Source of the DNA: Deltaproteobacteria bacterium
GTDB taxonomy: Bacteria > Myxococcota_A > Polyangia > Fen-1088
DNA: 64,000 nt
Direction: 5' to 3'
Assembly (NCBI GenBank): GCA_033763315.1
Contig: JANRKS010000005.1
Span: 288,001-352,000, forward strand
A program made the position numbers and the translations under genes. Below, one piece after another: positions 27,085 through 55,334 of this stretch (the stretch's first letter is position 1; each line of letters starts with the position of its first letter). The notes under the pieces are model-generated. The model ran no database searches, was not told the origin of the DNA, and worked only from the letters and a program-made list of their open reading frames with translations.

Positions 27085-27104
27085 AATCAACCAAGGACAC
27101 CACG

Positions 27105-28094
27105 ATGATGAAGAACCCGCACGAGACCACCTTTCAGGCTTTGTGGCGCCAGGCTTTGCAGGGCAGCCGTTTGTTGATGGGCGTGGCAGCCAGCTCAAGT
27201 CTGCTGTTGGCGGTCTGCCTGGCGATGCAAATGTTGGACGCCCGTATGATTGACGGTGTTTCAGTCTGGGCCAAGCCGGCCAAGTTTGCCGCCAGCGTGG
27301 TTGCGGGTGCGCCCGTGTTGGCGTGGATCTTGTGGCTGGTGGGGCCGCAGACAAAAGGCCGACGGATCATGTCTTCCATCTTCGCGGGGGCCTTCGTGTT
27401 GGAGCTTGTGCTCATCACGATGCAGGCCGCGCGTGGCGTGCCGAGCCACTTTAACGTGGCGACGCGTTTTGACGGGTTCGTTTTCACAGTGATGGGGGCC
27501 GCCATCACACTGTTCTGGTTAACCCAGCTTTGGTTGACCTACAAAAGCTTTAGGCACACGTTCGCAAACCGCGTGATCGGTTGGAGTGTGCGCTGGGCGT
27601 TGTTGATCGCGAGCCTTGGCGCCGCGGTGGCGTTCGCGATGCCTCAACGTGTGAGCCCCAAGCAACAAGAAGCCGTTCTTGCTGGACAGGCCACGACGAT
27701 TGGCGGCCACGCGGTGGGTGTGGAAGATGGTGGGCCAGGGTTGCCGGTCACGCGCTGGAGCGTCAAAGGCGGCGATCTGCGCGTGCCACATTTCCTCGGC
27801 CTGCACGCTTTGCAAATTCTGCCGCTGCTTGGCTGGGCGGTGTCGCGTCGACGTCCGCGCAAGGGCGTGCGCATCGTCAATGGTATTGGCGTGGCTTACC
27901 TGGGCCTTGTGGTTACCACGTTTGTTCAAGCCCAACGGGCGCGTCCACTTCATGCACCGGATGCCGTCACGCTGTGGCTGCTGGCCGCCGTTGTGGCGGT
28001 CGCCGCGGCCGTGCTGTGGTGGCCTCGGCGGCGTGCGGAGCTAAGGCAGGAACTTCGAGTCGATGATCACCGTGTCCATGATTTGGTCGCTTAG
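27105..28094 (+). CDS. Polytopic membrane protein, TetR-regulated
   Basis: Multiple TMs; WAKPAKF, QAARGVPSHFN, GGDLRVPHFLGLHALQ. Confidence 0.8.
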   Translation: MMKNPHETTFQALWRQALQGSRLLMGVAASSSLLLAVCLAMQMLDARMIDGVSVWAKPAKFAASVVAGAPVLAWILWLVGPQTKGRRIMSSIFAGAFVLELVLITMQAARGVPSHFNVATRFDGFVFTVMGAAITLFWLTQLWLTYKSFRHTFANRVIGWSVRWALLIASLGAAVAFAMPQRVSPKQQEAVLAGQATTIGGHAVGVEDGGPGLPVTRWSVKGGDLRVPHFLGLHALQILPLLGWAVSRRRPRKGVRIVNGIGVAYLGLVVTTFVQAQRARPLHAPDAVTLWLLAAVVAVAAAVLWWPRRRAELRQELRVDDHRVHDLVA

Positions 28095-36939: not shown

Positions 36940-36956
36940 TGAAGTGTCTCCAGGAG

Positions 36957-38516
36957 TTAGGCTACAGCCACAGGCAAAGGGGGTTGCGCGTTCGAGTGCT
37001 GCGGTGGCCACAAGCGGCCAAGCAACCGGTTACCCAACGTGCCGACGTAAAAGCCATTCAAGGCGTGCACATAGAGGCGCTGCCCTAGCTTTCGGTGGCC
37101 CATGCGCCACAACAACGTTTGAAAGAGGAACAAGCCCGCGAAGAGCGCGCCCACAACCGTGATGACCGTTGTCGAAGGTGTTAGGTGCGGTGTGTGCACG
37201 AAGAACCGCTGGGCTCCGGCGTGAAGGCCGAGGCCCAGCAAACAAAACACTTGCGTTGTTGCAAGTCCGAGCAACACAGCCTTGGGTTGCACGGACCATA
37301 ACCTCGCCAGGCCGTATCCCATCGCCAACACAAACACCAATCCCAATACGCCCAGCTCCAAGTGGGCTCCAAGCGTGTTGAGTGCCGTTGTATGCGCGAC
37401 GAAGGTGGCGGCGGCCGTGGCCAATCCCAACACAAGCGCGCCTGTGCGCAGCGGCGCCGCCTTGCGGGGCACAGCGCCGATGGTGGAGCCCGCCGTTAAA
37501 AACGCGTGTGCCTTGTAGAGCGAATGCGCCACGATATGCACGGTGGCCAAAGCAAAGGCGCCGAGGCCGCACTGCAAAAGCATGAAGCCCATCTGCGCGA
37601 TGGTGGAGTAAGCAAGCGCGCGCTTGACGCTTGGTTGCGCCAGCATCACCACGGCCCCAAATCCCGCCGTGACGGCACCCACCAGCGCCAATACGGAGAG
37701 CACGTGCGGTGCGTGCACGAACAGTGGCGACAACCGAATCACCAAAAAACCACCGGCGTTGATGATGCCCGCGTGCATAAAGGCGGACACCGGCGTGGGC
37801 GTCTCCATTGTATCGGGCAACCATCCATGAAATGGGAACTGCGCTGATTTTAAGGCGGCGCAGGCCGCGATGAGCGCGCATGGCAGGCTGAGGCCTTGCG
37901 TTTGGCCCGCGTCGACGGCGGCAAACATCTGTGTGACGTCGAAGGTGTTGTATTGCTCCTGCAGCAAGACGATGGCTGCCAGCAAACACAGGTCGCCCAT
38001 ACGGCTGATGACGAACTTCTTGCGCGCTGAAAACACGGCGCCTGCGCGGGTGGGGTAAAAAAGAAGCAACTGGTGCAGGCACAAGCTGGTGGCCACCCAA
38101 GCCACCCACAACAAGAGCAAGTGGCCCGCGCTCACCAACAGCAAGACCGCGGCCAGGGTGTTGCTCAACCAAGAGAAGAACCGTGGCGCCTCTGCATCGT
38201 TGCCTAAGTGGTTGCGGGAGAAACTCATCACTGACGCGCCGACGAAGGAAACCAGCACCAGCATGACGGCTGACACTTCGTCAAGCCGCAGGCTCACCGC
38301 CCAGGCGCCATGCAGGTTCGGACCCGCACCCAGCGTGGTGATGTGTCCGTGAGTTGTCAGAAGCACCGCCGAAACAATCGCCGCCACGCACGCGCTCAAG
38401 GCCGCCGCGATGGTGAGCGAAACCGCGCTCTTGGCGCGCAGCAAGCGCGGCAGGCACCCCGCGACGAAGGGAAGAAGCGGCACGGCAAATAGTGTGAAAG
38501 CTGCCAAGGAAGTCAT
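36957..38516 (-). CDS. dabB: DabB, NuoL/ND5-like proton-translocating subunit
   Basis: KSAQFPFHGWLPDTMETPTPVSAFMHAG, AYSTIAQMGFM, AHSLYKAHAFL; directly upstream of dabA. Confidence 0.92.
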   Translation of the reverse strand: MTSLAAFTLFAVPLLPFVAGCLPRLLRAKSAVSLTIAAALSACVAAIVSAVLLTTHGHITTLGAGPNLHGAWAVSLRLDEVSAVMLVLVSFVGASVMSFSRNHLGNDAEAPRFFSWLSNTLAAVLLLVSAGHLLLLWVAWVATSLCLHQLLLFYPTRAGAVFSARKKFVISRMGDLCLLAAIVLLQEQYNTFDVTQMFAAVDAGQTQGLSLPCALIAACAALKSAQFPFHGWLPDTMETPTPVSAFMHAGIINAGGFLVIRLSPLFVHAPHVLSVLALVGAVTAGFGAVVMLAQPSVKRALAYSTIAQMGFMLLQCGLGAFALATVHIVAHSLYKAHAFLTAGSTIGAVPRKAAPLRTGALVLGLATAAATFVAHTTALNTLGAHLELGVLGLVFVLAMGYGLARLWSVQPKAVLLGLATTQVFCLLGLGLHAGAQRFFVHTPHLTPSTTVITVVGALFAGLFLFQTLLWRMGHRKLGQRLYVHALNGFYVGTLGNRLLGRLWPPQHSNAQPPLPVAVA

Positions 38517-39573: not shown

Positions 39574-41304
39574 GTGGCTGGTCAACAAGAAGAGGAGCTC
39601 TTCTTGCGCGCACAGCTGTTCACTGCGTTAATCGTCACAACCTTGGTCTCAGGGTGCTCCGGCGCGGCGGGGTCCCCATCTGAGGGCGACGAGGCCGACG
39701 GCGGATCCGGTGGCGGCGCTTCCGGCGGCACCACAGCGCCGCCGCCCGAGGTGGTGCCAAAGCCGCGTGATTCTGCGTGTGCCGGCGCCGCGCCCAAGCC
39801 CGGCATCGCGGGCTTGCGCAAACTAACGCCATTTGAATACGACAACACTGTGGAAGAGTTGCTGCGCGCCACCACAAAACCTGGCGCCTCGTTCCCCGCA
39901 TCGCAACTTGTGCTTGGTTTCGACAACAACGCCGACGCTGTGAACGCCTCCACCTTGGCCGTTGAGCAGTATCAATCGGCCGCCGAAACGCTGGCACTGG
40001 CCGCCGTCAAAGATCTGCCGAAGTTGATGGGGTGCAACGGTGGTTCCGCGGCCGCCGAAGACACGTGCGCCAAAAGTTTTATCAAGTCGTTCGGCCTGCA
40101 CGCGTTTCGCCGCCCGCTGACCACGGCAGAGCTCGATCGCTTCACGCGCTTCTATATGGACAGCAAAGCGCCGAACGGATTCACAGACTCGGTGCGCATG
40201 CTCGTCGAAGCGTTCTTGCAGTCTCCGCATTTTCTTTACCGCGTTGAAGGTGCAGCGAAAACGGGCTCTGTGGCCGCGCCTTATGCATTGGCTTCGCGGC
40301 TTTCGTATCTCATTTGGAGCAGCATGCCTGATGAAACGTTGTTTGCTGCGGCAGCCTCTGGCCGCTTGAAGGGCGCCGGCGACGTGGCGTTGCAAGCGCA
40401 GCGAATGTTGGCCGACGATCGCGCCAAGCGCGGGGTGAATAACTTCTTTGGCCAGTGGCTTGAGTTGTCGCGCGTGCAGCGTCTTGAAAAGGATGCGGAA
40501 GCCAACCCCACGTGGACGCCGGCTATCGCCGGATTGTTGCGCCAAGAGACAGAAGCGTATGTGCAGGATCAGGTGTTGGGCGGCAAAGGCAACTTGAAAT
40601 CGCTACTCACCGACCCCCATAGTTTCATCAACGCAGATCTGGCGAAATTCTATGGCCTCCAGGCGCCTGCAGGGAGCGGCTTCGGGCGTGTAAATTTGAA
40701 CCCCAAGCAGCGTGCCGGATTGCTCACGCAAGGCGCCTTGTTGGCAGCGGCAGCCAAGCCTCGGCAAAGCTCGCCCGTGGCTCGGGGCTACTTCGTGCGC
40801 GACCGGTTGTTGTGTTCGCCGCCACCGCCTCCACCAGCCAACGTGAATGCCAAATTGCCCGAGCCCGACGGAACGGCCACCACGCGGCAACGCCTTGAAA
40901 GCCACCGCACGGATCCAAGCTGCAGAGGGTGCCACGAGCTTCTTGATCCCGTGGGTCTTGGTTTTGAACACTACGACGCCGTGGGCCTATGGCGCGATCA
41001 GGACGAAGGCAAGCCGGTGGATGCGACGGGCAAGATCAGCAGCGCCGGTGACGCCGACGGCGCGTTCGATGGCGCCATCGAACTTGCAACGAAACTGGCA
41101 GGCAGCCAAACGGTGCAGGCCTGCTTTGCCAAACAATTCTTTCGCTTCGCTTTCGCACGCGGCGAAACCGACGACGACGCATGCACGTTGGATGCCCTGA
41201 GTGTGGCCCTCGGTGGCAATGACGCCACATTCGCGCGCTTCATCGCTACGCTGACACAAACAGATCCATTCATGTACGAAACACAGGCAGGAGTTGGCCA
41301 ATGA
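39574..41304 (+). CDS. DUF1592/DUF1588/DUF1595-type lipoprotein with one c-type heme motif
   Basis: LVSGC lipobox, KLTPFEYDNTV, LQSPHFLYR, LASRLSY, SPVARG, PPPPP, CRGCH, GLGFEHYD. Confidence 0.92.
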   Translation: MAGQQEEELFLRAQLFTALIVTTLVSGCSGAAGSPSEGDEADGGSGGGASGGTTAPPPEVVPKPRDSACAGAAPKPGIAGLRKLTPFEYDNTVEELLRATTKPGASFPASQLVLGFDNNADAVNASTLAVEQYQSAAETLALAAVKDLPKLMGCNGGSAAAEDTCAKSFIKSFGLHAFRRPLTTAELDRFTRFYMDSKAPNGFTDSVRMLVEAFLQSPHFLYRVEGAAKTGSVAAPYALASRLSYLIWSSMPDETLFAAAASGRLKGAGDVALQAQRMLADDRAKRGVNNFFGQWLELSRVQRLEKDAEANPTWTPAIAGLLRQETEAYVQDQVLGGKGNLKSLLTDPHSFINADLAKFYGLQAPAGSGFGRVNLNPKQRAGLLTQGALLAAAAKPRQSSPVARGYFVRDRLLCSPPPPPPANVNAKLPEPDGTATTRQRLESHRTDPSCRGCHELLDPVGLGFEHYDAVGLWRDQDEGKPVDATGKISSAGDADGAFDGAIELATKLAGSQTVQACFAKQFFRFAFARGETDDDACTLDALSVALGGNDATFARFIATLTQTDPFMYETQAGVGQ

Positions 41305-42665
41305 AGTTCCGGCAGCTGTCACGACGTGCGTTGCTTCGCGGTGCAGGCGGCATCAGCATCGCGCTGCCATGGCTTGACATCATGGCGCCGCGCCGAGCTT
41401 ACGCCGCGGACCCGAAGCGCTTCATTGTGGTGTTTACTCCGAATGGCACGAACAACTACGAGCAGTTCACTCCGAAGGGAACTGGCGCGAACTTTACGCT
41501 TGGCACCGAAACGGCGCCATTGTTGCCTTGGAAGAACAAGATGCTCGCGCTCTCGAACGTCAACGCCGTGAGCGCTTTGAACTCCGAAGGCGATCAGCAT
41601 GGCGTGGGCATGGCCGAAGTGCTTACAGCCACGCGTTGGGCAAAGGGGCCCGCGGTGGATGACGTTCCGATCTGGGGCGGCGGTATTTCCATCGATCAGC
41701 GGATCGCCCAAGACGTGGGCAAATCCACCATGTTTCCTTCGCTGGAGCTTGGCGTGCAAACCACCTTGGGTACAGAGGGGTCGGGCGTGCACCCATTTAG
41801 CCGCATGGTCTATAAGAGCGCCGCCACACCCGTGCCGGCGATCGAAGATCCGCGCGAGACTTTCAAGCGTTTGTTCAGCAACCTGGCACCAAGTGGCGCC
41901 GGTGCAGACACCTCGGGCCTGGACAAAGCCCGGCTGCAACGCAAAAGCGTGCTTGATTTTGTGAAGGAAGACTATCAACAGCTGGCGCCTCGTCTCAGCA
42001 CGAAGGACAAGCAAAAGATTGATCAACACTTTACGGCCATTTCAGAAATCGAGAAGCGTTTGGGTGGCGCAACCACTGTAACGCCGGCTATGGGGTGCAA
42101 CAAACCGGCTGAGCCATCACCCACTTTGGATGTGAAAAATCCCGCGAACTTTCCGCAAATTGGGAAATTGCAAACCGACCTGTTGGCTGTAGCGCTGGCG
42201 TGTGACTTAACCCGTGTGGCCACGTTGCAGTGGTCTTGGGCACGCTCAGATGTGGCCCTGCAGTGGATTGGCGTTAAAGATTCGCATCACGATCTGAGCC
42301 ATGGTGCCGCGTCCGCCACGCTTTCGTCGATCAATAAGTGGTACGCGGAACAAGTGGCATACTTGTGCAAGACGCTGGATGGCTTTGACGAAGGCGGAAA
42401 AACCTTGCTCGACAACTCAGTGTTGTGGTGGACAAGCGATGTTTCGTTCGGCCCCACCCATTCTTTCACAAACATACGCGCCCTGTTGTTTGGCTCATGC
42501 GGCGGCTACTTTAAAACCGGGCAGCACATTGATTACGGCAACGCCAGCAAGGTCACCAACAATCAGCTGATGGTGACGTTCATGCGGGCGATGGGCATAC
42601 AGGCCGCTCAATTTGGTGAGGCATCCGCGGCACAGGGCCCCCTGCCTGGGCCGATCACGGCTTGA
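41301..42665 (+). CDS. DUF1552 family protein, Tat substrate
   Basis: SRRALLRG, FTPNG, SIDQRIA, ALACDLTRVATLQ, HHDLSH, TLLDNS; ATGA-coupled to the DUF1592 gene. Confidence 0.92.
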   Translation: MKFRQLSRRALLRGAGGISIALPWLDIMAPRRAYAADPKRFIVVFTPNGTNNYEQFTPKGTGANFTLGTETAPLLPWKNKMLALSNVNAVSALNSEGDQHGVGMAEVLTATRWAKGPAVDDVPIWGGGISIDQRIAQDVGKSTMFPSLELGVQTTLGTEGSGVHPFSRMVYKSAATPVPAIEDPRETFKRLFSNLAPSGAGADTSGLDKARLQRKSVLDFVKEDYQQLAPRLSTKDKQKIDQHFTAISEIEKRLGGATTVTPAMGCNKPAEPSPTLDVKNPANFPQIGKLQTDLLAVALACDLTRVATLQWSWARSDVALQWIGVKDSHHDLSHGAASATLSSINKWYAEQVAYLCKTLDGFDEGGKTLLDNSVLWWTSDVSFGPTHSFTNIRALLFGSCGGYFKTGQHIDYGNASKVTNNQLMVTFMRAMGIQAAQFGEASAAQGPLPGPITA

Positions 42666-44230: not shown

Positions 44231-45691
44231 CTAACGCGCATAAGGGTCCTTTATACCGTTAAGCAATGGCCGCGGTGGACTGTGTTCCACAGGTTCGGCT
44301 TTCGGTGTGGCGGATCTTGGTTTCGGCCGCTGTGTCGCACGCTTGGTGCGCCTTGAAACGGGCTTCACAGGCGCGGGCGCTGCAGCGGGAGGCGTCGTTG
44401 CCGAAGGTTGAACGTCCACAGGCGCCGGGGGGATCACCCTTGCCGTCGGCGGAGGCATCGCCACGAGGGGATTCTCCTGCTTTGCCTTGGGCGTGCGTTG
44501 CACAAGCACCGTCGCCACAGTTGCGATCGCCAGCGCCGCCCCCGGCAGCCACAAAAGACGGCTTTGACGCTGCGAGCGCGCTGGTCTTGCCGGCTGCACG
44601 ATGTTTTGCAAGGCCGTCAGCAGTGTGGCCATTGATGCAAATCGATCTTGCGGCTGCAGCGCGAGTCCCTGCGCCAAGATTCGATAAAGGGCGCCTGGTA
44701 CTTTGGTGTCCTTGGGCGCGGGTCTTAGTTGACCTGAGAGCACGGCACGCGCCAGCGCCGAGAGATCGCGCTCGCCATCGGAAGCAAAGGGCCTCTGCTT
44801 GTAAAGCGCGACATAAAGCGAAGCGCAAAAATTAAACTGATCCGTCGACTGATCGGCGCGTGCCCCGCGAAATTGTTCCGGCGCCATATACGCGGGTGTG
44901 CCGGCAAACGCGGCCGCCTCCGTCAGCGTCAATAAAAACGAACGCACACCTGTGATGGAAGTTGTGGTGCCTGCCACGCCATCAGGGTGATCGCTGTCCC
45001 CCGCGTGGGCCGCGCGCGCCAACCCAAAATCAGTGACGCGCGGCCGCCCGTCGGCGCCCACCAGAACGTTCTCGGCCTTGAAATCGCGGTGAACCAGCCC
45101 CGCCGCGTGCGCTGCCACCAACCCCTGGCCCGCGGCAATGAACTGGGCCACCACGTCTTGCCAAGCCGGTTTGTGCCGTGAAAGCCAGCGGGCCAAGGTC
45201 TGGCCTTCAATAAGCTCCATCGCGATGAACACGCCGTCTTTGAACGTGCCGGCATCGTAAACAGCCACGACAGACGGGTGAGACAACTGTGCCATGGCAC
45301 GTGCCTCGCGTAGCAACCGATGCGCGTCTGTCGCCGCCTGCGCGCCCGCACGATCGGGACGCACGATCTTCAATGCGACCCGGCGGCTCAGCTGTGGATC
45401 GAAAGCCTCATAAACCAGGCCTGCCCCTCCTGCGCCCAGCAGGCCACCGATTTCATAACGGCCTACGGTGGCGCCATGCTCAAGCTTGATGGGCTCGCTG
45501 TCGTGGTCGTCGACGGTGGCGCCGATCTCTGGCTCGTCCAAACTGGGGGGCAACGCCTTGCGGGTTTGCGCCACCAACACGCGGCACCGACTGCATGTGC
45601 CCAGGTGATCGATGATGGCCGGTCGATCGGGACCCGCGGTGCCCCCGCCGACAAACAAGAGGATCTCGTCGTCATTGAGGCAGGGGCGCAT
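44231..45691 (-). CDS. Transmembrane Ser/Thr protein kinase with N-terminal zinc-finger (anti-sigma-like) domain
   Basis: CLNDDE...HLGTCSRC; GAGGAG, VALK, HRDFKAEN, DFG, GTPAYMAPEQ; TM; Pro-rich tail ending KDPYAR. Start uncertain (45691-45730). Confidence 0.92.
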   Translation of the reverse strand: MRPCLNDDEILLFVGGGTAGPDRPAIIDHLGTCSRCRVLVAQTRKALPPSLDEPEIGATVDDHDSEPIKLEHGATVGRYEIGGLLGAGGAGLVYEAFDPQLSRRVALKIVRPDRAGAQAATDAHRLLREARAMAQLSHPSVVAVYDAGTFKDGVFIAMELIEGQTLARWLSRHKPAWQDVVAQFIAAGQGLVAAHAAGLVHRDFKAENVLVGADGRPRVTDFGLARAAHAGDSDHPDGVAGTTTSITGVRSFLLTLTEAAAFAGTPAYMAPEQFRGARADQSTDQFNFCASLYVALYKQRPFASDGERDLSALARAVLSGQLRPAPKDTKVPGALYRILAQGLALQPQDRFASMATLLTALQNIVQPARPARSQRQSRLLWLPGAALAIATVATVLVQRTPKAKQENPLVAMPPPTARVIPPAPVDVQPSATTPPAAAPAPVKPVSRRTKRATQRPKPRSATPKAEPVEHSPPRPLLNGIKDPYAR

Positions 45692-45763
45692 GCCGTTCTC
45701 GTTCACACGTGAATTTTCCCAGTGTATCATGAGGTGTGAACGATTCCCAACGCCGGCCTTAGC

Positions 45764-46696
45764 ATGTCCGGAGCGTCGCATTTACCCGTTTTACCGCAAG
45801 GTTTCCTGCCGCAGGATGTTCTGGCGGCCTACCTGCAGGCGGGCGGCGCCGCGGGCTTGGACGCCACGCGGTTGAGCGAGCTTTTGGTTCAGCTGTTTGC
45901 CAAAGCAAGCCTGCGGCATTCCACCTTCGTGGTGACGCCAGTGACGTTCGCAGCCGCTTTGGCGGAACGCACCGCCGGCGAACCCGATCCGTTGGTCACC
46001 CTGGCTTCTTTGCATGTGGAGGATCTGTATTTGGCGCAGGCCTGCGTCTTGGGTGACGCCGTGGCGTTGCGCTGCCTCAATGAAGAATTCCTTCTGCCTT
46101 TAGGCCAGCAGGTGCGCCGCGGACCGTTTGCGAACCATGCCGATGAAGCGCAACAGATGCTGCGCGTGCGCCTGCTGGTGGGGCATGACGGTGAGCCGGC
46201 GCGCTTGTTCGGTTATCGTGGCACGGGACCCCTGGCAGCGTGGCTGCGCCTCACTCTAACGCGACTGGTGCTGAACCTTCACAACGCAGCCGCGCGCGAA
46301 ACAAGCTTGGATGATCACCTCATCTCCGTCAGTGCGGGGCAAGGCGATCCAGAACTTTCATACCTTCGGGATCACTACCGCGATGTGGTGTTGCAAGCTA
46401 TGCGTGAATCGATTGAGGTGCTATCCAGTGAAGAGCGCGCAATTTTGCGCATGCATTTCATCGATGACTTGTCAGCGGCCGACATCGGCTCATTGTTTCA
46501 AGTTTCGGGCCGCACGATCCAGCGGCGCATTGCGGACACGCGCCGCCAGATTGTCGAGCGCGTCAAGGAAATCATCGGCCGCCACGTGGGGTTGAATGGG
46601 AGCCAGCTGGAAACCATCATGCGCCTGGTGCAAAGCGATTGGAACCTTTCGCTGCACCGTCTGCTCGCTGCGCCCACGGAGCCGTCTGGAAAATAG
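45764..46696 (+). CDS. Myxococcales-type sigma-70/ECF-like factor
   Basis: EDLYLAQAC, YRGTGPLAAWLR, DPELSYL, LRMHFIDDLS..DIG; this type is commonly next to zinc-finger kinases in myxobacteria. Confidence 0.85.
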   Translation: MSGASHLPVLPQGFLPQDVLAAYLQAGGAAGLDATRLSELLVQLFAKASLRHSTFVVTPVTFAAALAERTAGEPDPLVTLASLHVEDLYLAQACVLGDAVALRCLNEEFLLPLGQQVRRGPFANHADEAQQMLRVRLLVGHDGEPARLFGYRGTGPLAAWLRLTLTRLVLNLHNAAARETSLDDHLISVSAGQGDPELSYLRDHYRDVVLQAMRESIEVLSSEERAILRMHFIDDLSAADIGSLFQVSGRTIQRRIADTRRQIVERVKEIIGRHVGLNGSQLETIMRLVQSDWNLSLHRLLAAPTEPSGK

Positions 46697-46701
46697 AAAG
46701 C

Positions 46702-46730
46702 TTTGTCCGCTTTCGGCGCCTGCGGCATAG
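46702..46730 (+). promoter_or_regulatory. ECF promoter motif copy 1 (TTTGTCCG-N16-CATAG)
   Basis: Upstream of the ECF sigma gene at 46764; two more copies at 49862 and 50458. Confidence 0.75.
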
Positions 46731-46763: not shown

Positions 46764-47351
46764 GTGACAGACAAAGACGTCCCCACGTCCGCGACGCTTT
46801 TGGCTCAATTTAGGGCCGGGGAACGCGCGGCCTTTTTACAGGTATATGAACTGTTTGCCGACAAAGTGGGCGGGGTGGCGCGTCGGTATTTCAATACGGC
46901 CTTTGATCAGGAGGAGGCCATACAGGAGATTTGGCTCATGGTGCACTGTCAGTGCGCGCAATTTGATGGCAGCAAAGGTGATCTGGGAGGCTGGCTGTGG
47001 ACCGTGGCGACCAACCGTTGCAAGGAGCTGTGGCGCAGCCGTTCACGTCGCCCAGAGGTTCTGCCCGCTGATGCAGCAGATGATTCACCCACGCTATCTT
47101 TTGATCCGCCCGAGCTGCATGTGCAGACGCAGCGCTTGGCGGCTGCCATGGCTGCTTTCGCCGCTCGCCTTGACGCCACCGAGGCGCGTGTGTTTCAGCT
47201 TTCGTGCCTGGAAGAGCGCACGCACGATGAGGTGGCTGCCTTGACCGGCATGACAGCGAGGCAGTGCAAATACCTGCGTATGAAGCTTCTGGCACGCGCC
47301 GCCGCCGACGCCGAGCTTGCGAAAGCCGTGCAAGAGGTGACGCACCCATGA
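46764..47351 (+). CDS. ECF RNA polymerase sigma factor
   Basis: EEAIQEIW...FDGSKG.LGGWLWTVATN; region 4 EERTHDEVAALTG. Confidence 0.9.
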   Translation: MTDKDVPTSATLLAQFRAGERAAFLQVYELFADKVGGVARRYFNTAFDQEEAIQEIWLMVHCQCAQFDGSKGDLGGWLWTVATNRCKELWRSRSRRPEVLPADAADDSPTLSFDPPELHVQTQRLAAAMAAFAARLDATEARVFQLSCLEERTHDEVAALTGMTARQCKYLRMKLLARAAADAELAKAVQEVTHP

Positions 47352-48118
47352 GCTTATGGCGGTACCGCCACAGAATCGCGCGCGCGGTGGCCGGCGATCT
47401 GCCGGCGAAGGCGGAGCTGAAGCTGCGCGCACACTTGCGATCTTGCGAGGCCTGCCGGGCGCACTACAACGTGCTTTCGCAAATGGCGAGCGTCAGCGAT
47501 CCCGCCACAGCGAAGCAACGCCAACGCGCTCGGCTTGAAGCTTTGTTGCCTGCGCCGGTGGCAACGCCCGTGCGAGCCACGCGCCGGTGGGTTTGGGCGC
47601 TGCCCGTGCTAGTGCCTGCGATGGTGGCACTTGTGTGGATGCGATCGCACCCGCCCACTCTTGAAGAAGTGCAATGGCGTGGTGGTGCGGAGCCCGCGGC
47701 GTGGCCGCTGTCGCTTGTGATGTACGAGTTTGCGCATGGCCCGCAGGGGCCCGCGGTTGTTTTGGGCGAGCTGCCATTTTCGCGCGGCGTACGTGTGGCG
47801 CGTGAGGCTTTGGTGCAATTCGCTTACGCCAAGCTGCAAAAGCCCACGTTCTTGTTCTTGGTGGGGCAACAAGAAGGCAAAGCGGTGGTGCTTTTCCCGC
47901 GGCGTCCACAAGACGAGGGGCAGCTTGTGCCAGAGCCACGCGCGAAAGCTTTGGGCACGTCGTTGAACCTGCATGCCGCCTTCAACCCAGGCTTGCTGCG
48001 GCTAAGCGTGGTGCTTTCCGCACAGCGGCTCACGGCGGACCAAGCCACGGCAGCCGTCACTTCGGGCAAGCTCACTGGCTTACAAGTCTTTGGCGAAACG
48101 GTTAGGCTGCTCCCCTAA
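47348..48118 (+). CDS. zf-HC2 transmembrane anti-sigma factor with periplasmic (DUF4384-like) domain
   Basis: Start refined to ATG 47348 (ATGA overlap); HLRSCEAC, TM, then QWRGG and a beta-rich domain with VVLFP. Confidence 0.82.
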   Translation: MSLWRYRHRIARAVAGDLPAKAELKLRAHLRSCEACRAHYNVLSQMASVSDPATAKQRQRARLEALLPAPVATPVRATRRWVWALPVLVPAMVALVWMRSHPPTLEEVQWRGGAEPAAWPLSLVMYEFAHGPQGPAVVLGELPFSRGVRVAREALVQFAYAKLQKPTFLFLVGQQEGKAVVLFPRRPQDEGQLVPEPRAKALGTSLNLHAAFNPGLLRLSVVLSAQRLTADQATAAVTSGKLTGLQVFGETVRLLP

Positions 48119-48123
48119 GCGAC

Positions 48124-49851
48124 ATGTTCAAGTTGGTGCGGCTCGCTCTGCTTCTCACCCTGGTGATTCCACCACTGCAGGCGCACGCCCAGGGGGGGCG
48201 GGAGCGTGAGTTCGGGCAAACGCTCGTTTTAATCGTGGGCTGGAACGGCGGCGGCTTTGGGCTTCCGCCGCTGCGCTATGCCGACGACGACGCACTTCGC
48301 TTTGCTGCCACTTTGGGGGCCGATTCTTCAGGCCTCTTACGACCCAAGATGGTGGTGCTCACGCAGCTTGACGCGGAGACAGCTGCGCATGCGCCGAATG
48401 CGAATGTTGTTTCGGGGCCGCCGACGCGCGTGCGGTTGCGCGCCGCGATCGATGATTTCGTGCGTGACTTGGCCGCATCGAAGAAGCGGCACCGCGTGTT
48501 TGTGATCTACGCCGGCCACGGCCTCACCAATCGGCTGTTGCTTGCCCCTTCGGATGGCCAAGACGAAACTTTCTCTGGATACGAATTGCGTTCAGCGGTG
48601 ACCCAGCTTGCACAGGCCAACGCGCACGCTGAGATCTTCGTGTTCATCGACGCTTGCCGCTCGCAGAGCCTGTTTACAACACGCGGCGGATTGGACGGGC
48701 CCGATTTGAGCGCCGTCATAGACAACCTTGAACAACAACCGTTGGGCACGCAGGTGGGTGTGTTGACGGCGGCCACCAGCGCCAAGCCCGCAGGTGAACT
48801 GCACAGACTTGAATCAGGTTACTTCAGCCACGTCTTGCTCTCGGGCATTGTAGGCGCGGCGGATGCCGATGAGGACGAGCACGTCTCATTCGGGGAATTG
48901 GCAGCGTTTGTGAGCTTTCACACGCAGGCGATGATGGGGCAACGACCCTGGTTTAGCCCGCCGCATGGCGATCTAGGCAGCGTTCTGTTTGATCACAGCC
49001 GCGACAATCATCGCCTGGTGTTCCCGCGCGGCATGGATGGACACTTCGAGGTGCGGGCCGCGCAAGGTCGACCGCTGTTTGCTGAGCTGTTCAAAGACAA
49101 GAACCAGCGCATAACGCTGTCGTTGCCGCAAGGCCAGTATCAAGTGCTGCAGACTTCACCAGCGCAAGGCACACGGCAGGCGGCTGTGGAATTGGCCGCG
49201 CGGGGCAGCGTGGATGTGCAAACATCGGCTTGGCAAGTGGCAGGCGAAGCTTCGCGTGGTGAACAGGATGGCGTTGACGCGGACACTTTGGGCTTTCGCG
49301 CGCCATTTTCCAGCGACGTGGTCGCCACGCTCAGAAGCGGTTACGACAGTGGCCGCATGTCGGCGGTGAGCCCATCGGTCGAAGCGCGGGATGCGTTTGC
49401 CCTCGGCGCGGCCGCTGGCAGCATGCCCTTGTCCCTGGGCGGCGTAAGCTATGGCGTTGCTCTTGCGTATAGGCACTTGTTTTCGCATTGGTTCGTGGGT
49501 GTTGGTGGTTCGTTTCTGCGCGCATCACACGACTTGCCAGATGAGTCTTACACGCTGGTACAGCTCCCAGTGCAAGCGCAACTCGGTGCTTGGCATGCCT
49601 TTACGCCGGCATGGTGGGCGTCCACGTGGTTAAGTGGGGGCTCAAACAGCTTGTGGCGCATAGGATCAGAAACGACAGGCGATCGCTTGTTGCCACGCGT
49701 TGGCGCTGGTGTGTCAGTTTATCGACGGCTACAAGGGGCGTGGTTCTTGGGCGTGTCGCCGGCGCTGCACAGTCAATGGATTGCCGTTGATGGACGAGCG
49801 CAGGCAGATAAGGGAATGACGATCAATTTTGAGGTGAGCTATGTGCGTTGA
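48124..49851 (+). CDS. Exported caspase-family (peptidase C14) protein with probable C-terminal beta-barrel
   Basis: Signal peptide (AHA); LRYADDDA, YAGHG, FIDACRS dyad, ADADEDEHVSFGEL; amphipathic strands ending INFEVSYVR. Confidence 0.88.
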   Translation: MFKLVRLALLLTLVIPPLQAHAQGGREREFGQTLVLIVGWNGGGFGLPPLRYADDDALRFAATLGADSSGLLRPKMVVLTQLDAETAAHAPNANVVSGPPTRVRLRAAIDDFVRDLAASKKRHRVFVIYAGHGLTNRLLLAPSDGQDETFSGYELRSAVTQLAQANAHAEIFVFIDACRSQSLFTTRGGLDGPDLSAVIDNLEQQPLGTQVGVLTAATSAKPAGELHRLESGYFSHVLLSGIVGAADADEDEHVSFGELAAFVSFHTQAMMGQRPWFSPPHGDLGSVLFDHSRDNHRLVFPRGMDGHFEVRAAQGRPLFAELFKDKNQRITLSLPQGQYQVLQTSPAQGTRQAAVELAARGSVDVQTSAWQVAGEASRGEQDGVDADTLGFRAPFSSDVVATLRSGYDSGRMSAVSPSVEARDAFALGAAAGSMPLSLGGVSYGVALAYRHLFSHWFVGVGGSFLRASHDLPDESYTLVQLPVQAQLGAWHAFTPAWWASTWLSGGSNSLWRIGSETTGDRLLPRVGAGVSVYRRLQGAWFLGVSPALHSQWIAVDGRAQADKGMTINFEVSYVR

Positions 49852-49861
49852 GCGCAACCGG

Positions 49862-49890
49862 TTTGTCTGGTGCCAATGGATCTCGCATAG
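49862..49890 (+). promoter_or_regulatory. ECF promoter motif copy 2 (TTTGTCTG-N16-CATAG)
   Basis: 7 nt before ATG 49898. Confidence 0.75.
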
Positions 49891-50436: not shown

Positions 50437-50460
50437 AAAAGGCTGAAGCAACAGCCTTTT
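50437..50460. terminator. Hairpin/intrinsic terminator
   Basis: AAAAGGCTG-AAGCAA-CAGCCTTTT perfect inverted repeat after stop 50419. Confidence 0.65.
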
Positions 50461-50486
50461 GTCCGGAAACGAAGCGATGAACATAG
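50458..50486 (+). promoter_or_regulatory. ECF promoter motif copy 3 (TTTGTCCG-N16-CATAG)
   Basis: 7 nt before ATG 50494. Confidence 0.75.
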
Positions 50487-50493
50487 AACAGGT

Positions 50494-51600
50494 ATGCTCC
50501 AATCTCTTGCGCATGCTTTTCTGGGTTTGTGTCTAGCTTTTGGCGTCGCGGCCTGCGAAGCCGGATCGGGTGCTGACACGGATGCCACACCGCCAGACGC
50601 CGCCGCAGACACTGTGTTGCCGACTGCTGTTTCCCTCGGCAACGTACTTCTGCTGGCCGCCGCTTCTCACGCCGGGTGGGCGGTGCTGGCGCATGCCCCG
50701 ATGAACACCTCGGAGGCACCCGGCCAGCTGGTTTGGCTAAACAACGCGGGTAAGGCAGTCGGGGCACCACAAGCTTTGGCCGGGCGACCAACGACCTTGG
50801 CCACAGATGGCGAGCAGGCCATTGCTTGTTGGGATCGCGGCGGCGCAGTCACGTGCCAATGCCACGCGCGCGGCGGACAGGCGTCGCGTCTCACGTTTGA
50901 GGTCGCAGGGTCAAAGCCCTCGCTGGTTTTCGGCAACGAGACTTACCTGCTGGTTTATGTGGGGATCGACAAGCAGGTGCGTCTGCAACGGGTTGCTGCT
51001 GCGTGCGAACCCGTGGGAGAGACCGCGGTCTTGCATCAGGCGTTTCTTGAACAATACGGATATCAAATTCCCGTAATCTCGACCATGGGAGGATGGCTGG
51101 TGGCGGCGGGCGATCCCGTGCACTTGCACCGCTTAGGGCCGGATTTCACAGCCCTCCAAGCGCCCGTCGATCTGAAGATGCCCCCTTGGTTCTATGGCAG
51201 CCTCGCCGCAGTTGATGATGACTTCATGGTGTACCTGGCGAAGCCGTACGGCGGACAAATATTCCTGGTCCAAGGTGCGAAGGTCACCGAAGGATCCGAA
51301 ATAACGGCGGGAGGTAAGCAGGGGGCCGACGTTTTGTTGGCCACCGAGGGACGCCACGCTTTGGCTGTGTGGAACAGCGGAGGCTCACTTCAACAACACG
51401 AAATGGGCGCCGTTGCGGCCACGATGTTTGCCGCTGGGGACGCCACCACACCGAAGCCGCTGGGAATGCAGATGGAGGACTGGTCGCGTTACGCTCTTGT
51501 GAAGATAGGTGACCAGCAAAGACTGGCGGCCAGAGTGGAGGGCGAACTGAAACTGTTCAACTTGCACGGCTTCGAGCCGTCGCACTTAGGTGAGCGCTAA
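50494..51600 (+). CDS. Lipoprotein, beta-rich (propeller-like), unknown function
   Basis: Start refined to MLQSLAHAFLGLCLAFGVAAC (lipobox). Confidence 0.7.
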   Translation: MLQSLAHAFLGLCLAFGVAACEAGSGADTDATPPDAAADTVLPTAVSLGNVLLLAAASHAGWAVLAHAPMNTSEAPGQLVWLNNAGKAVGAPQALAGRPTTLATDGEQAIACWDRGGAVTCQCHARGGQASRLTFEVAGSKPSLVFGNETYLLVYVGIDKQVRLQRVAAACEPVGETAVLHQAFLEQYGYQIPVISTMGGWLVAAGDPVHLHRLGPDFTALQAPVDLKMPPWFYGSLAAVDDDFMVYLAKPYGGQIFLVQGAKVTEGSEITAGGKQGADVLLATEGRHALAVWNSGGSLQQHEMGAVAATMFAAGDATTPKPLGMQMEDWSRYALVKIGDQQRLAARVEGELKLFNLHGFEPSHLGER

Positions 51601-52580
51601 TCTGAATGCGTTGTCGTAGGTGATGCCTCGGCGAACCTATCAAGCGCCTCGAGCAGCGCCTTTCGTTTTGTGATGCTTGGCAAGTGCCCCGTGTCATCGA
51701 TCGTGTAAAGGCGAGAGCCCACCCATGCGCGGGACAGGGACCAGGCGGTCTCAATGGGACAACTCAGGTCGTGGCGACCATGTATGAGCACGCCCGCAAT
51801 GCCGAACAGCTGGTGGGCGTCGCGAACCAGCGCGCCTTCTTCAAGCCAAGCCCCATGTTGAATGTAATGGGTGCAGATCCGCACGAGAGCGATCATCGCG
51901 GCCTCGGGTAGATCGCTATACACGTTGTAATGGGAGTTCGGTTCAAGCGAAAGCACCGCGTCCTCCCAGGCGCACCATGCACGCGCGGCAGCCAGGCGCA
52001 CCGCCTCAGTGGGGCTCTGCAACCTGCGGGCATACGCGGCGACGAGATCTTGGTCGACGTTTACTTCGCTCACGTGGTCGCGAAACCTCTGCCACGCCTC
52101 GGGAAACAAACGCGCGACGCCACCGCCATACAGCCACGCAGCTTCGCTTCGACGCGAGGTCGTCACATCGGTGAGCACCATCTGAGTAACACGGCTAGGG
52201 TGGCGCTGCGCGTATGCGAGCGCCAGGGTTACGCCCCACGAACCTCCGACCACCAACCAGCGCTCGATGCCCAGATACAAACGCAAGGCCTCCATGTCCT
52301 GTACCAAGTGCGATGTGGTGTTTGCGGCCATATCGGTGGTGGGATCGCTTGCGTGCGGCGTCGAGCGGCCGCACCCACGCTGATCAAACAGCACAATTCG
52401 ATACCGCGCAGGATTGAATGCCTGACGCATCCGCGGCGCACAACCTTGCCCCGGACCGCCGTGCAAAAGGACGGCTGGCTTGCCATGCGGGTTGCCGCTC
52501 ACTTCCCACGCAATGCGATTTCCTTCGCCCACGCTTAACATGCCATGGTCGTAGGGCTCAATCGGCGGGTAAAGATCCAT
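51597..52580 (-). CDS. pip: Prolyl aminopeptidase (proline iminopeptidase)
   Basis: LHGGPG, FDQRGCGRSTP, GGSWG, HGRHD, TGH. Confidence 0.95.
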   Translation of the reverse strand: MDLYPPIEPYDHGMLSVGEGNRIAWEVSGNPHGKPAVLLHGGPGQGCAPRMRQAFNPARYRIVLFDQRGCGRSTPHASDPTTDMAANTTSHLVQDMEALRLYLGIERWLVVGGSWGVTLALAYAQRHPSRVTQMVLTDVTTSRRSEAAWLYGGGVARLFPEAWQRFRDHVSEVNVDQDLVAAYARRLQSPTEAVRLAAARAWCAWEDAVLSLEPNSHYNVYSDLPEAAMIALVRICTHYIQHGAWLEEGALVRDAHQLFGIAGVLIHGRHDLSCPIETAWSLSRAWVGSRLYTIDDTGHLPSITKRKALLEALDRFAEASPTTTHSD

Positions 52581-54156: not shown

Positions 54157-54212
54157 AAGAGAACCTGCCCTTGCGATTCGCTGTGAGCAATACAACGGGC
54201 ATAGGTTCTCTT
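54157..54212. other. Long hairpin directly downstream of the toxin gene
   Basis: AAGAGAACCT-GCCC ... GGGC-AT-AGGTTCTCTT inverted repeat overlapping the stop codon. Confidence 0.55.
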
Positions 54213-54870
54213 AACGACCCATGGACTGATCTCGTCGCCAAAGCGAGACACCCTTTTCGAGTTCTTTCTTCACGATTGACCATGATCGCTCATACCCCTC
54301 GGGAGACGGATCGCGTTCTGCATCCATGAAATATGTAAGCGCCAAGGCGACCTGGCTCGGCGCTAGAGGCAAGTTCTTTGCGGCGTGGTCAATGAATCGG
54401 CCAAGTGACCACCCCGGTGACTTGGATATCTCAAGGACATCTATCAGGTCTCGCTTCGTTCCTCTGTCATGAACGGCAGCAGCCTTCATCACAGCGAGCA
54501 TTTCAAGCTTTGCAACCGGAATCGCAACGGCCCCTATCTTGATCGGCGCCACCTTCGGGGGCACCTGCCGATAGGCGATGAAGCTGGTTTCGAAATTGCC
54601 GTAGTAGGCCCGCACCGTATGGGCGCTGTTTTGGGCAATACTTGTTGGCTTCTCACCCAGGGCACTTAGCTCCTTCTTCAACGCTTCTGCGTCAAATGCC
54701 TGCGCGGTGAACCAATCCAAATCGCGGGAAATGCGGTGCTTGAGCAGCAGCCCCATGGCCGTGCCGCCCGCAAGAAAGAAACCCTTCTTCTTCACAAGGT
54801 CCGCTTGCAAGCCAATGATGCGGATCTTCTCCGCATCGAGGATCTTCTTCTTCGTCGTCAACCCGCCCAC
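54211..54870 (-). CDS. AbiEii/AbiGii-family nucleotidyltransferase (type IV TA toxin)
   Basis: FFLAGGTA...HRISRDLDWF, MKAAAVHDRG.KRDLID. Confidence 0.9.
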   Translation of the reverse strand: MGGLTTKKKILDAEKIRIIGLQADLVKKKGFFLAGGTAMGLLLKHRISRDLDWFTAQAFDAEALKKELSALGEKPTSIAQNSAHTVRAYYGNFETSFIAYRQVPPKVAPIKIGAVAIPVAKLEMLAVMKAAAVHDRGTKRDLIDVLEISKSPGWSLGRFIDHAAKNLPLAPSQVALALTYFMDAERDPSPEGYERSWSIVKKELEKGVSLWRRDQSMGR

Positions 54871-55334
54871 TCAAATCCAAGAAACGCGCGCTCTGGCACG
54901 TCTTGCGTTGTAAGTAAGTAGCGCTTCCGCAAAAGCTTTCTCTCGGGCTCGTTAAATCCCGCCCCTGCGTATTGTCGCAGCAATTCACGCACGCCCGTTT
55001 CTGAAAGCATTCCCTTAAGCCACCTCCGAGCCGGCCGCGAACCCCTACGAACTATCTCTCGCACAATTGCGTAACGATGGTCCTGCTGCATCCAATCAAG
55101 CTTCGCCACGTCGTAGGTCTTCAAAAGCTGCGCCACCGGCAGCGGCAACGGCACGTTCGCCGGGGGCTTAGCTTTGGATCTAACCGTGCTCCAGCGCTTC
55201 TGAGCAGCCAGCTGCGCAATTTCTCTACGCCGTTGAGGCGACAACGACAAGGCGCGCGCACGCCCGCCCAATGGGCCTCCCTTAAGGCCCCCAAGCCGGC
55301 CCAATGCCACTGCATGAGGATTCTTCGTCGTCAC
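54858..55334 (-). CDS. Putative antitoxin: basic KGG-like N-terminal module fused to a DUF6922-like domain
   Basis: KNPHAVALGRLGGLKGG...RRREIAQLAAQKRW, then TYDVAKLD...IVREIVRRG...RWL; overlaps the toxin start. Confidence 0.72.
   Translation of the reverse strand: MTTKNPHAVALGRLGGLKGGPLGGRARALSLSPQRRREIAQLAAQKRWSTVRSKAKPPANVPLPLPVAQLLKTYDVAKLDWMQQDHRYAIVREIVRRGSRPARRWLKGMLSETGVRELLRQYAGAGFNEPERKLLRKRYLLTTQDVPERAFLGFEWAG

Follow-up and report, generated by a model that had tools for sequence, protein, structure and literature searches.

The 64,000-nucleotide stretch of DNA analysed in this study (in the following, the window) originates from a deltaproteobacterium of the Myxococcota_A and carries on its plus strand an operon of three genes, which encode a sigma factor of the extracytoplasmic function (ECF) type, a single-pass membrane anti-sigma factor and an exported protease of the caspase family (C14). 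In Myxococcota, this triad is conserved as a module with translational coupling and is no chance arrangement. Beyond an initial annotation of the region made from the sequence alone, we observed the conservation of the triad, an outer-membrane barrel at the C-terminal end of the caspase (~150 residues), and a promoter motif which the operon has in common with two downstream genes. For the function of the module, we propose that the caspase is an outer-membrane-anchored, Arg/Lys-specific enzyme that serves as dedicated site-1 protease and would cut the anti-sigma factor after Arg111, that a similar site in its own tether would be used for autoinhibition or release, and that a site-2 step would free the sigma factor; we rate this proposal at slightly below an even chance. 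Since non-metazoan C14 proteases cleave after Arg or Lys, it is the best reading of the data. It is further favoured by the Arg-Gly in the anti-sigma linker, by conserved acidic residues at putative S1 positions, and by the modelled DUF4384-type fold of the anti-sigma factor, a fold that other bacteria combine with C14 and C1 proteases in fusion proteins.

Conservation of the operon and its predicted promoters

The three tightly coupled genes described in the initial annotation were recovered as open reading frames (ORFs) with the coordinates given in Table 1. The sigma gene reads from a GTG to a TGA stop codon, which shares an ATGA overlap with the ATG of the anti-sigma gene (47348), and the stop codon of the latter (48118) is followed after 5 bp by the ATG of the caspase gene (48124). 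ORFs of the window were called by length (G+C content at third codon positions ~0.7). The longest anti-sigma ORF begins at 47264, while all aligned homologues (28/28) begin at the MSL... sequence that corresponds to 47348.

One genome per GTDB species was scanned for relatives of the caspase. Among 207 caspase relatives found, 80 loci were kept, of which 43 contain close family members and 37 more distant ones with caspases 27–35% identical to that of the window. Start codons in these loci were set by a simple rule, and some gap values may be off. Homologues of both the sigma and the anti-sigma gene lie directly 5′ of the caspase gene in 40 of the 43 close loci, with sigma orthologues 38–53% identical to that of the window. 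As to the other three, only the sigma gene was detected by tblastn in L032, and L033 and L034 comprise only ~450–700 nt of upstream sequence. Coupling by 4-nt overlaps connects sigma and anti-sigma genes in 39 of the 40 loci, and anti-sigma and caspase genes in 29 of them. The remaining 40 loci (the 37 distant ones and L032–L034) were examined by a Pfam scan of 107 upstream ORFs, which covered 39 loci because L052 has no upstream ORF. Thereby, an ECF sigma factor was found in 15 loci, a zf-HC2 domain in four and DUF4384 in two; several further loci have an ORF of ~200 aa and one of ~300 aa before the caspase gene, both without Pfam match. The presence of the triad in nearly all close loci together with sigma genes at distant loci indicates that the association is old and wide in the lineage. 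Wherever the source name of a caspase homologue states a taxon, it is Myxococcota or a subgroup thereof; the related loci belong to Myxococcota or to bins labelled as proteobacterial (delta- or generic), one of them carrying the label Bdellovibrionales. In line with an origin of the window in Myxococcota, the sigma gene adjoining the triad matches the Myxococcales-specific model TIGR03001. Clusters of the caspase family, defined at 50% identity, numbered 1,420 with the threshold E ≤ 1e-30 and 6,098 with E ≤ 1e-10 in a profile search of 1.84 billion representatives. Fused anti-sigma/caspase proteins longer than 595 aa were not found, which counts as weak evidence.

A motif scan placed a predicted ECF-type promoter (P1) before the sigma gene. 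When both strands of the 64 kb were searched with the pattern TGTCY-N16-RCATA, exactly three matches were obtained, all on the plus strand and located before the sigma gene, gene 4 and gene 5 (P1 to P3 in Table 1). By chance, 0.17 matches are expected, and three were reached in none of 100 shuffles. In the 43 close loci, a related pattern, TGT[CT]C and GCATA separated by 14–18 nt, was found 59 times compared to 2.5 expected (maximum 6 in 100 shuffles), including positions not more than 170 nt 5′ of the sigma gene in 26 of 39 loci. In contrast, no enrichment was seen in the 37 distant loci (2 versus 3.9 expected), which is the outcome to be expected if promoter specificity follows the sigma orthologue. 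We take these sites as predicted promoters that would be read by the cognate sigma factor.

The two genes downstream of the triad are predicted sigma targets. Gene 4 encodes a lipoprotein that is 35–42% identical to lipoproteins encoded just 3′ of the caspase gene in eight loci (L001, L003–L006, L010, L014 and L016), with six invariant Cys residues. At all eight, the lipoprotein gene starts only 8–9 nt after the −10 end of the motif. Two of these homologues show weak CarboxypepD_reg matches under the cut-off. For gene 5, no Pfam or NCBIfam family was found, and no relative was detected by tblastn in the 80 loci. The short distance between motif and start codon suggests that the transcripts of gene 4 and gene 5 are leaderless or nearly so. 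In relatives, the motif also precedes genes for Sulfatase-domain membrane proteins (~600 aa; PF00884, E as low as 2e-45), which match models of lipoteichoic acid synthase, phosphoglycerol transferase and phosphoethanolamine transferase weakly and far under the cut-offs, for a protein with an FA_desaturase domain, and for secreted proteins and lipoproteins without known family. As the predicted targets are lipoproteins, sulfatase-fold and desaturase-like proteins, the predicted regulon is envelope-directed. Six loci (L025, L029, L031, L035, L037 and L039) have a second, divergent copy of the motif upstream of the sigma gene in opposite orientation; it precedes genes for lipoproteins of 416–456 aa with a common VVHEWGT motif and no known family, the ORF in L025 being ended by the contig end after 91 aa.

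The proteins and their basic-Gly sites

The caspase was matched by Peptidase_C14 (PF00656) with 27.2 bits (cut-off 21.4). An AlphaFold model built with 27 homologues reached a mean predicted local distance difference test score (pLDDT) of 83.3. In a Foldseek comparison with the PDB, the N-terminal part of the model resembled MALT1 caspase-Ig3, metacaspases 9 and 4, Yca1, legumain and procaspase-1, with E values between 3e-7 and 1e-5 for MALT1, metacaspase 9, Yca1 and procaspase-1. The model shows the caspase-hemoglobinase fold, in which the His and Cys of the dyad follow strands 3 and 4, as in C14 enzymes. His132, Cys178, Asp176 and Asp54-56 are invariant in the 27 homologues and kept in all 76 caspase ORFs compared. 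His132 aligns with the YSGHG motif and the Cys178 motif with the D-S-(C147) of Arabidopsis metacaspase 9, Asp176, two residues before Cys178, aligns with an Asp at the like position of that enzyme, and Asp54-56 open the first helix (H53-65) of the model.

Eight long strands with pLDDT values of ~90–97 form the C-terminal part, for which Foldseek returned NspA, Ail, OmpX, OmpA and OmpW (template modelling (TM) score by target 0.55–0.75); the number of strands is that of small outer-membrane barrels. In even-stranded barrels of the OmpA/OmpX type, both ends are located on the periplasmic side, so that the caspase should be tethered to the outer membrane with its protease domain hanging in the periplasm. 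The last residue is F, W or Y in 21 of 27 family members, which is the usual signal for outer-membrane insertion; the caspase of the window ends with ...SYVR (49840–49851) and that of its closest relative with ...SHVQ. The signal peptide (by eye), the barrel and the membrane helix of the anti-sigma factor together place the protease and the C-terminal domain of the anti-sigma factor in the same, extracytoplasmic compartment. This had been proposed in the initial annotation along with an intact His-Cys dyad, and both points are borne out. Its description as an exported caspase was right regarding export and incomplete in that the eight-stranded tether to the outer membrane, which alters the geometry of any model, was overlooked.

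Within the caspase domain, residues 245–258 (48856–48897) form an EF-hand-like loop between two helices, which was recognised by eye. It reads DADEDEHVSFGE in the window and DADGDxxVxFxE in the family consensus, with D247 and E258 being invariant. At this spot, the family profile gave non-significant PDB matches to calcium-binding proteins (E 0.14–0.17), and a Pfam search with residues 228–275 gave no match even at E up to 10. From its sequence, the loop may be a calcium site.

The sigma factor was matched by Sigma70_r2 (46.5 bits, cut-off 24) and by the sigma70-ECF model TIGR02937 (64.6 bits, cut-off 42.9), whereas Sigma70_r4_2 remained with 21.6 bits under the cut-off of 25.7. It comprises regions sigma-2 and sigma-4 only, as is characteristic of the ECF superfamily. 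The anti-sigma factor has the layout of class I zinc-binding anti-sigma factors, i.e. a zinc-motif domain, one membrane helix and an extracytoplasmic C-terminal domain. The zf-HC2 match amounts to 23.7 bits (cut-off 22.2) and is found in 28 of 29 family members, and H29, C33 and C36 of the HxxxCxxC zinc motif are invariant in all 29 sequences. Based on family membership and the ATGA-coupled gene pair, we infer that it binds and inhibits the cognate sigma factor. Its AlphaFold model (29 homologues) has a mean pLDDT of 87.3, which falls below 50 at residues 100–102 and 104–113 in the linker between membrane helix and periplasmic beta-sandwich, the sandwich itself being modelled with confidence.

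For this sandwich, the protein of the window has no Pfam match, while DUF4384 (PF14326) matches two of 29 relatives (best E 3.2e-4) and, under the cut-off, two distant anti-sigma ORFs. A structural comparison of residues 114–256 with ESM Atlas clusters gave TM scores by query of 0.67–0.75, and the matched clusters carry DUF4384 together with zf-HC2 (Myxococcota), Peptidase_C1 with DUF4384, Peptidase_C14 with DUF4384, or protein kinase domains. The model thus points to a sensor domain of the DUF4384-type fold, which is tied to proteases elsewhere. According to the part of 10.1101/2022.08.17.504292 consulted, the C-terminal domain in one group of Csx30 proteins is a DUF4384. In the PDB, RhoGDI, PDE6-delta and UNC119 came closest to the sandwich, all with weak matches (E ~1e-4, TM by target 0.32–0.46), and this likeness to lipid-binding sandwiches is a lead only.

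In the alignment of 29 anti-sigma sequences (mean column identity 30%), Gly112 is the only invariant periplasmic residue, and the preceding Arg111 is present in at least 90%. Both are located 13 residues past the membrane helix in the segment with pLDDT below 50. Within 30 residues past the helix, an Arg-Gly occurs in 40 of 41 close anti-sigma factors (mean 8.7, maximum 16 after shuffling of the periplasmic part) and in 22 of 27 distant candidates (shuffles mean 5.4, maximum 13). Distant proteins without it have, by eye, Arg-Ser (L047, L049, L061) or Arg-Ala (L071) instead, and L074 has only a Lys-Gly in this range. A corresponding dipeptide, Arg378-Gly379, is located in the caspase tether between Ig-like (immunoglobulin-like) domain and barrel; each residue is found in at least 90% of 27 sequences, residues 377–384 have pLDDT values below 50, and 70 of the 76 ORFs have Arg-Gly or Lys-Gly in this column. 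Matching changes at both sites were found in L038, with Lys-Gly in both proteins, and in the related pair L047/L049, with Arg-Ser in both.

The putative specificity follows from a comparison with characterised enzymes. According to passages of PMC5756287, all characterised C14 members except animal caspases cleave after Arg or Lys owing to an acidic pocket. For TbMCA2, the proposed S1 residues include Asp95 in helix alpha1 and Asp211 in loop L4, and in the Arg-specific gingipain RgpB, Asp163 on alpha1 binds the P1 Arg (both from sections of PMC4357240), while in metacaspase 9, Arg183 of the autoinhibitory motif is buried in the S1 pocket (excerpts of PMC10235996). The caspase family keeps acids, Asp54-56 and Asp176, where by sequence position TbMCA2 and RgpB have their S1 acids. 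An acidic pocket with Arg/Lys-type specificity is inferred from this for the caspase of the window.

Table 1 Coordinates of the operon, its protein features, the predicted promoters and the two downstream genes
Feature	Position	Strand	Basis or remark
Predicted ECF-type promoter P1, TGTCC-N16-GCATA	46704..46729	+	motif scan; before sigma gene
ECF (group 4) sigma factor, 195 aa	46764..47351	+	Sigma70_r2, TIGR02937
Class I (zinc-finger) single-pass anti-sigma factor, 256 aa	47348..48118	+	zf-HC2, AlphaFold model
Anti-sigma cytoplasmic domain, residues 1–66			four helices, 2–66
Anti-sigma membrane helix, W81–M98	47588–47641	+	hydrophobicity, by eye; RATRR on N-terminal side
Anti-sigma disordered linker, residues 100–121			
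Arg111-Gly112, candidate site-1 cleavage site in juxtamembrane linker	47678..47683	+	conservation, pLDDT
Anti-sigma periplasmic beta-sandwich, residues 122–254	47711–48109	+	
Predicted outer-membrane-anchored periplasmic caspase (C14), 575 aa	48124..49851	+	Pfam, AlphaFold, Foldseek
Caspase signal peptide, residues 1–22, cleavage AHA/QG			N-terminal hydrophobic helix, by eye
Caspase domain, residues ~30–290	48211–48993	+	
Catalytic His132 (YAGHG)	48517..48519	+	invariant 27/27; 76/76 ORFs
Catalytic Cys178 (DACRS)	48655..48657	+	invariant 27/27; D-[AS]-C in 76/76 ORFs
Caspase Ig-like sandwich, residues 296–372	49009–49239	+	
Arg378-Gly379, candidate autoprocessing or autoinhibitory site in tether	49255..49260	+	
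Caspase disordered tether with helix 397–410			
Caspase eight-stranded barrel, residues 423–574	49390–49845	+	
Predicted promoter P2, TGTCT-N16-GCATA	49864..49889	+	ends 8 nt before gene 4 start codon
Gene 4, Cys-rich lipoprotein, 173 aa	49898..50419	+	lipobox LISAC; predicted direct sigma target
Predicted promoter P3, TGTCC-N16-ACATA	50460..50485	+	ends 8 nt before gene 5 start codon
Gene 5, lipoprotein of no known family, 368 aa	50494..51600	+	lipobox VAAC; predicted sigma target

Proposed signalling and alternative readings

In the resting state of the proposed system, the zinc-finger anti-sigma factor would hold the sigma factor at the inner membrane, and its DUF4384-type sandwich would be joined to the membrane helix by the disordered Arg-Gly linker. 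After export, the C14 protease would be suspended from the outer membrane, held by its eight-stranded barrel via a disordered tether. An envelope signal would render the protease active, perhaps by cutting of its own tether site or by freeing of this site from the pocket. The active enzyme would then cut the anti-sigma factor after Arg111 and leave a stub of ~13 residues for a site-2 protease, followed by cytoplasmic degradation of the remainder. The freed sigma factor would transcribe from TGTCY-N16-RCATA promoters, i.e. from that of its own operon in a positive feedback and from those of neighbouring envelope genes. Probable targets are the two lipoprotein genes in the window and, in relatives, also genes for sulfatase-fold transferase-like enzymes and a desaturase-like protein. 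Candidate signals are a perturbation of the outer membrane or its lipids perceived via barrel or sandwich, a change of the inter-membrane distance, or calcium.

Several points weigh against this proposal. With respect to catalysis, the caspase family shows little sequence similarity to C14 enzymes of solved structure (best E 0.11, and nothing useful with the caspase domain alone in a sequence search against the PDB, best E 0.92), and the S1 assignment is read from sequence position. The family presumably has an Ala at the place of the specificity-pocket Cys, according to a motif comparison. Passages of PMC5756287 state that this Cys matters (TbMCA2 Cys92, AtMC9 Cys29) and that a His-Cys dyad by itself is no proof of activity. 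With respect to the two sites, the tether column is without Arg-Gly or Lys-Gly in six of the 76 ORFs (L008, L047, L049, L067, L073, L080). Mismatches also occur: Lys-Gly in the caspase stands beside Arg-Gly in the anti-sigma factor in L059 and L062, with the reverse in L074; L073 has Arg-Ser in the caspase and Arg-Gly in the anti-sigma factor; and in L061 and L071 only the anti-sigma factor has changed, to Arg-Ser or Arg-Ala. As the matching change is incomplete, no statistical co-variation is claimed. The promoter motif is absent within 170 nt of the sigma gene in 13 of 39 close loci, several of which have it further upstream before extra genes. Moreover, the candidate site is only ~13 residues away from the inner membrane while the enzyme would be anchored in the outer membrane, so that the model requires a long reach or a release of the enzyme, which the tether of ~50 residues would make possible. 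Finally, no gene for a site-2 protease (Peptidase_M50) was found among the 52 scanned ORFs of the window; this is a weak point because genes for site-2 proteases are usually unlinked to ECF operons. A complex prediction for caspase residues 26–375 and anti-sigma residues 100–256 gave no answer (score 0.01, mark 0.32) and counts neither way.

An extension of the site-1 proposal, which we regard as conceivable but doubtful, would make the co-encoded caspase also a sensor of the distance or integrity between the two membranes. The tether Arg-Gly would then act as pseudo-substrate or release site, the substrate Arg-Gly would be positioned just above the inner membrane, and the DUF4384-type sandwich would be a docking domain for caspases. 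Such docking would explain both the fusions to C14 and C1 proteases elsewhere and the presence of this domain on some Csx30 proteins. As part of the same extension, the triad would be a periplasmic counterpart, and possibly a relative, of the cascade of Craspase and RpoE described below.

Alternatively, the caspase could be a partner or co-sensor that reaches over the periplasm to bind the anti-sigma factor at its DUF4384-type domain, and that thereby shields it from a general periplasmic protease or relays a signal from the outer membrane, similar to RseB on RseA or to a TonB-dependent transducer on a FecR-type anti-sigma factor, with any proteolysis aimed at the caspase itself or at other envelope proteins. 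The combination of outer-membrane barrel, inner-membrane anti-sigma factor and ECF sigma factor resembles cell-surface signalling as outlined in parts of PMC11637429 and PMC5411451, the tight translational coupling would suit a stoichiometric complex, and the fusions of DUF4384-type domains with proteases could mean binding instead of cleavage. However, neither the near-invariant basic-Gly in the disordered anti-sigma linker nor the conservation of the same dipeptide in the caspase tether is explained thereby, and the presence of dyad and acidic residues in all 76 ORFs argues for an activity under selection. Therefore, a purely binding role appears unlikely.

The conserved Arg-Gly of the anti-sigma linker is likewise left unexplained if the caspase is an output enzyme, which, comparable to DegP in the sigma-E regulon, would be produced in larger amounts upon induction and would act in the processing or degradation of lipoproteins or of periplasmic or outer-membrane proteins, while the anti-sigma factor senses a signal of its own via the DUF4384-type domain. 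ECF operons often include target genes of their own, the operon is located behind a predicted autoregulated promoter, and the neighbouring predicted targets (lipoproteins and envelope enzymes) could be substrates or co-workers. Yet the other targets vary by locus and have their own promoters, whereas the caspase gene is always part of the sigma/anti-sigma unit, mostly with 4-nt overlaps, and this association persists at 27–35% caspase identity, where promoter motif and targets do not. An output role is thus also improbable.

A defence or programmed-death module akin to the cascades linked to CRISPR (clustered regularly interspaced short palindromic repeats) or to EACC systems, in which the caspase kills or arrests the attacked cell, is suggested by the caspase-like proteases known to act on sigma-binding proteins in type III-E systems, by a proteolytic cascade described for type III-B in the literature as far as consulted, by caspase conflict systems with neighbouring ECF sigma genes (sections of PMC8195603) and by a weak match to caspase_w_EACC1 (NF047832), but it is very improbable in view of a score of 38.3 bits far under the cut-off of 140 for that model, of an exported, membrane-anchored and thus non-cytoplasmic protease, of predicted targets that are lipoproteins and lipid or envelope enzymes, and of the gene content described in the following section.

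Genomic surroundings and comparison with known systems

The genes around the triad are chromosomal housekeeping and envelope genes. In agreement with the initial annotation, which had noted the lack of CRISPR and SAVED genes, Pfam scans of 52 window ORFs revealed no cas, SAVED, CARF, CHAT, TPR-CHAT, Lon or STAND gene, and Tandem Repeats Finder detected no repeat array in the window. For 12 ORFs around the operon, PADLOC returned only a generic caspase match for the triad; its other matches were kinase-family matches for the neighbouring kinase, a weak TAP-like match for the hydrolase gene at 51597–52580, and AbiEii 4 kb away. Between 46500 and 52000, no sigma-70-type promoter was found, and eight terminator-like sites were obtained versus 6.8 expected by chance.

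Upstream of the triad, a gene for a Ser/Thr kinase (44231–45781, minus strand) is oriented head to head with a gene for a sigma-70 factor of Myxococcales family 1 (45764–46696; TIGR03001, 187.9 bits), with the longest ORFs overlapping by 18 nt at their starts; the two could be a kinase-regulated sigma pair. A functional link of this pair to the triad was considered and rejected since it is not conserved beside the triad: in the 80 loci, tblastn gave no match for the sigma gene and matches for the kinase only in L018, L035 and L075, at other positions. Another ECF-type sigma gene of the window (3282–3917) precedes an ORF of 320 aa with a weak TPR match (to 4876), the two overlapping by 4 nt. 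The AbiEii-type nucleotidyltransferase toxin gene (54211–54870, minus strand) has a small ORF directly upstream (54858–55334); the G+C content falls to ~0.57 across 54211–55334, and this region resembles a small island with a toxin-antitoxin pair. Further features of the window comprise two very large ORFs of 920 and 1135 aa (9146–14985, minus strand) with many MopE-type metal-binding repeats, one of them also with an FGE-sulfatase domain, which overlap as called and have provisional boundaries, as well as two copies of a planctomycete-type DUF1587/1592/1595/1588/1585 protein (533–2293 and within 39574–42665), with a DUF1552 (HXXSHH) protein encoded after the second. In the intergenic region between a TetR-family gene (26354–27004, minus strand) and the divergent ORF 27105–28094, 2.5 copies of a 22-nt unit (27032–27087) may constitute an operator. 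At 34585–38516, a pair of DabA (808 aa) and DabB-like (Proton_antipo_M) genes with a LysR-family regulator gene alongside represents a putative inorganic-carbon uptake system.

In literature searches, no published description of a sigma/anti-sigma/caspase triad and no C14 site-1 protease of an anti-sigma factor were found. The word caspase is absent from the main text of the ECF classification in PMC7826278 and from 357,196 characters of its supplement, the rest of which may mention it. Within ECF sigma signalling, least is understood about the site-1 proteases, and most ECF groups lack a known one; a caspase in this role, if true, would bring a new clan of proteases into regulated intramembrane proteolysis. 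The functions of bacterial caspase homologues are largely unknown and mostly discussed in terms of cell death; the proposal would provide a defined substrate and a signalling role apart from death. An outer-membrane-anchored enzyme and an inner-membrane-anchored substrate suggest a means to sense the state or spacing of the envelope, the link to DUF4384 gives a testable function to a widespread domain and ties the triad to the Craspase substrate, and the predicted promoter offers a ready reporter in cultivable myxobacteria.

The caspase has the caspase-hemoglobinase fold and the His-Cys dyad in common with the C14 metacaspases, orthocaspases and MALT1. It also resembles them in the Asp that precedes the Cys by two residues and in a candidate basic site for autoprocessing or autoinhibition, and its protease is followed by an Ig-like domain as in MALT1 caspase-Ig3. 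Unlike these enzymes, to which its sequence similarity is very low (best PDB E value as given above), it has a Sec signal peptide, a C-terminal outer-membrane barrel and an EF-hand-like DxDxDxxVxFxE loop (by eye) inside the domain, and the specificity-pocket Cys is apparently replaced, which we take from the same motif comparison. The EACC1/EACC2 caspase conflict systems are defined by fusion of the caspase to a constant EACC module and variable effector domains, whereas the architecture here is caspase-Ig-barrel.

The initial annotation had pointed to an analogy with caspase-like CRISPR cascades, and this analogy is sound. In type III-E Craspase, the RpoE-binding protein Csx30 is the cleavage substrate of the caspase-like Csx29, as stated in the part of 10.1101/2022.08.17.504292 consulted. 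As in this system (Cas7-11/Csx29/Csx30/Csx31/RpoE), a gene for a clan CD protease stands beside genes for an ECF-type sigma factor and a sigma-binding protein. The latter is cleaved in a linker in Craspase, corresponding to the candidate linker site of the anti-sigma factor, and the DUF4384 on some Csx30 C-termini has the fold that is predicted for the anti-sigma sandwich. On the other hand, CRISPR, Cas7-11 and TPR-CHAT are missing here, the trigger cannot be a target RNA, and neither the cas genes, the TPR-CHAT or SAVED-Lon proteases nor the cytoplasmic location that characterise type III-E Craspase and type III-B CalpL/CalpT/CalpS were found. The stand-alone version put forward in the initial annotation would imply kinship with these cascades, of which no sign was found: the protease is an exported, predicted outer-membrane-anchored C14 enzyme and not of the CHAT or Lon type, and the anti-sigma factor is an ordinary class I zinc-finger (zf-HC2) protein.

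As in FecI/FecR/FecA, an outer-membrane barrel with a periplasmic N-terminal module is combined with an inner-membrane anti-sigma factor and an ECF sigma factor. However, the barrel is eight-stranded and of the OmpA/OmpX type instead of the 22-stranded TonB-dependent type, and the periplasmic module is a protease instead of a signalling domain; matches to TonB_dep_Rec, Plug, STN and FecR were not obtained, which separates the triad from FecIRA-type systems. The system of sigma-E, RseA, DegS and RseP (AlgU/MucA/AlgW) is similar in that a class I anti-sigma factor with one membrane pass and a regulated periplasmic part holds an ECF sigma factor, and the proposed logic of site-1 and site-2 cuts, sigma release and autoregulation would be the same. 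The difference lies in the candidate site-1 enzyme, which is a clan CD cysteine protease of the caspase family and not DegS/AlgW, Prc/CtpA, PrsW or signal peptidase, is co-encoded in the operon, would be anchored in the outer instead of the inner membrane, and has its candidate cleavage site after Arg.

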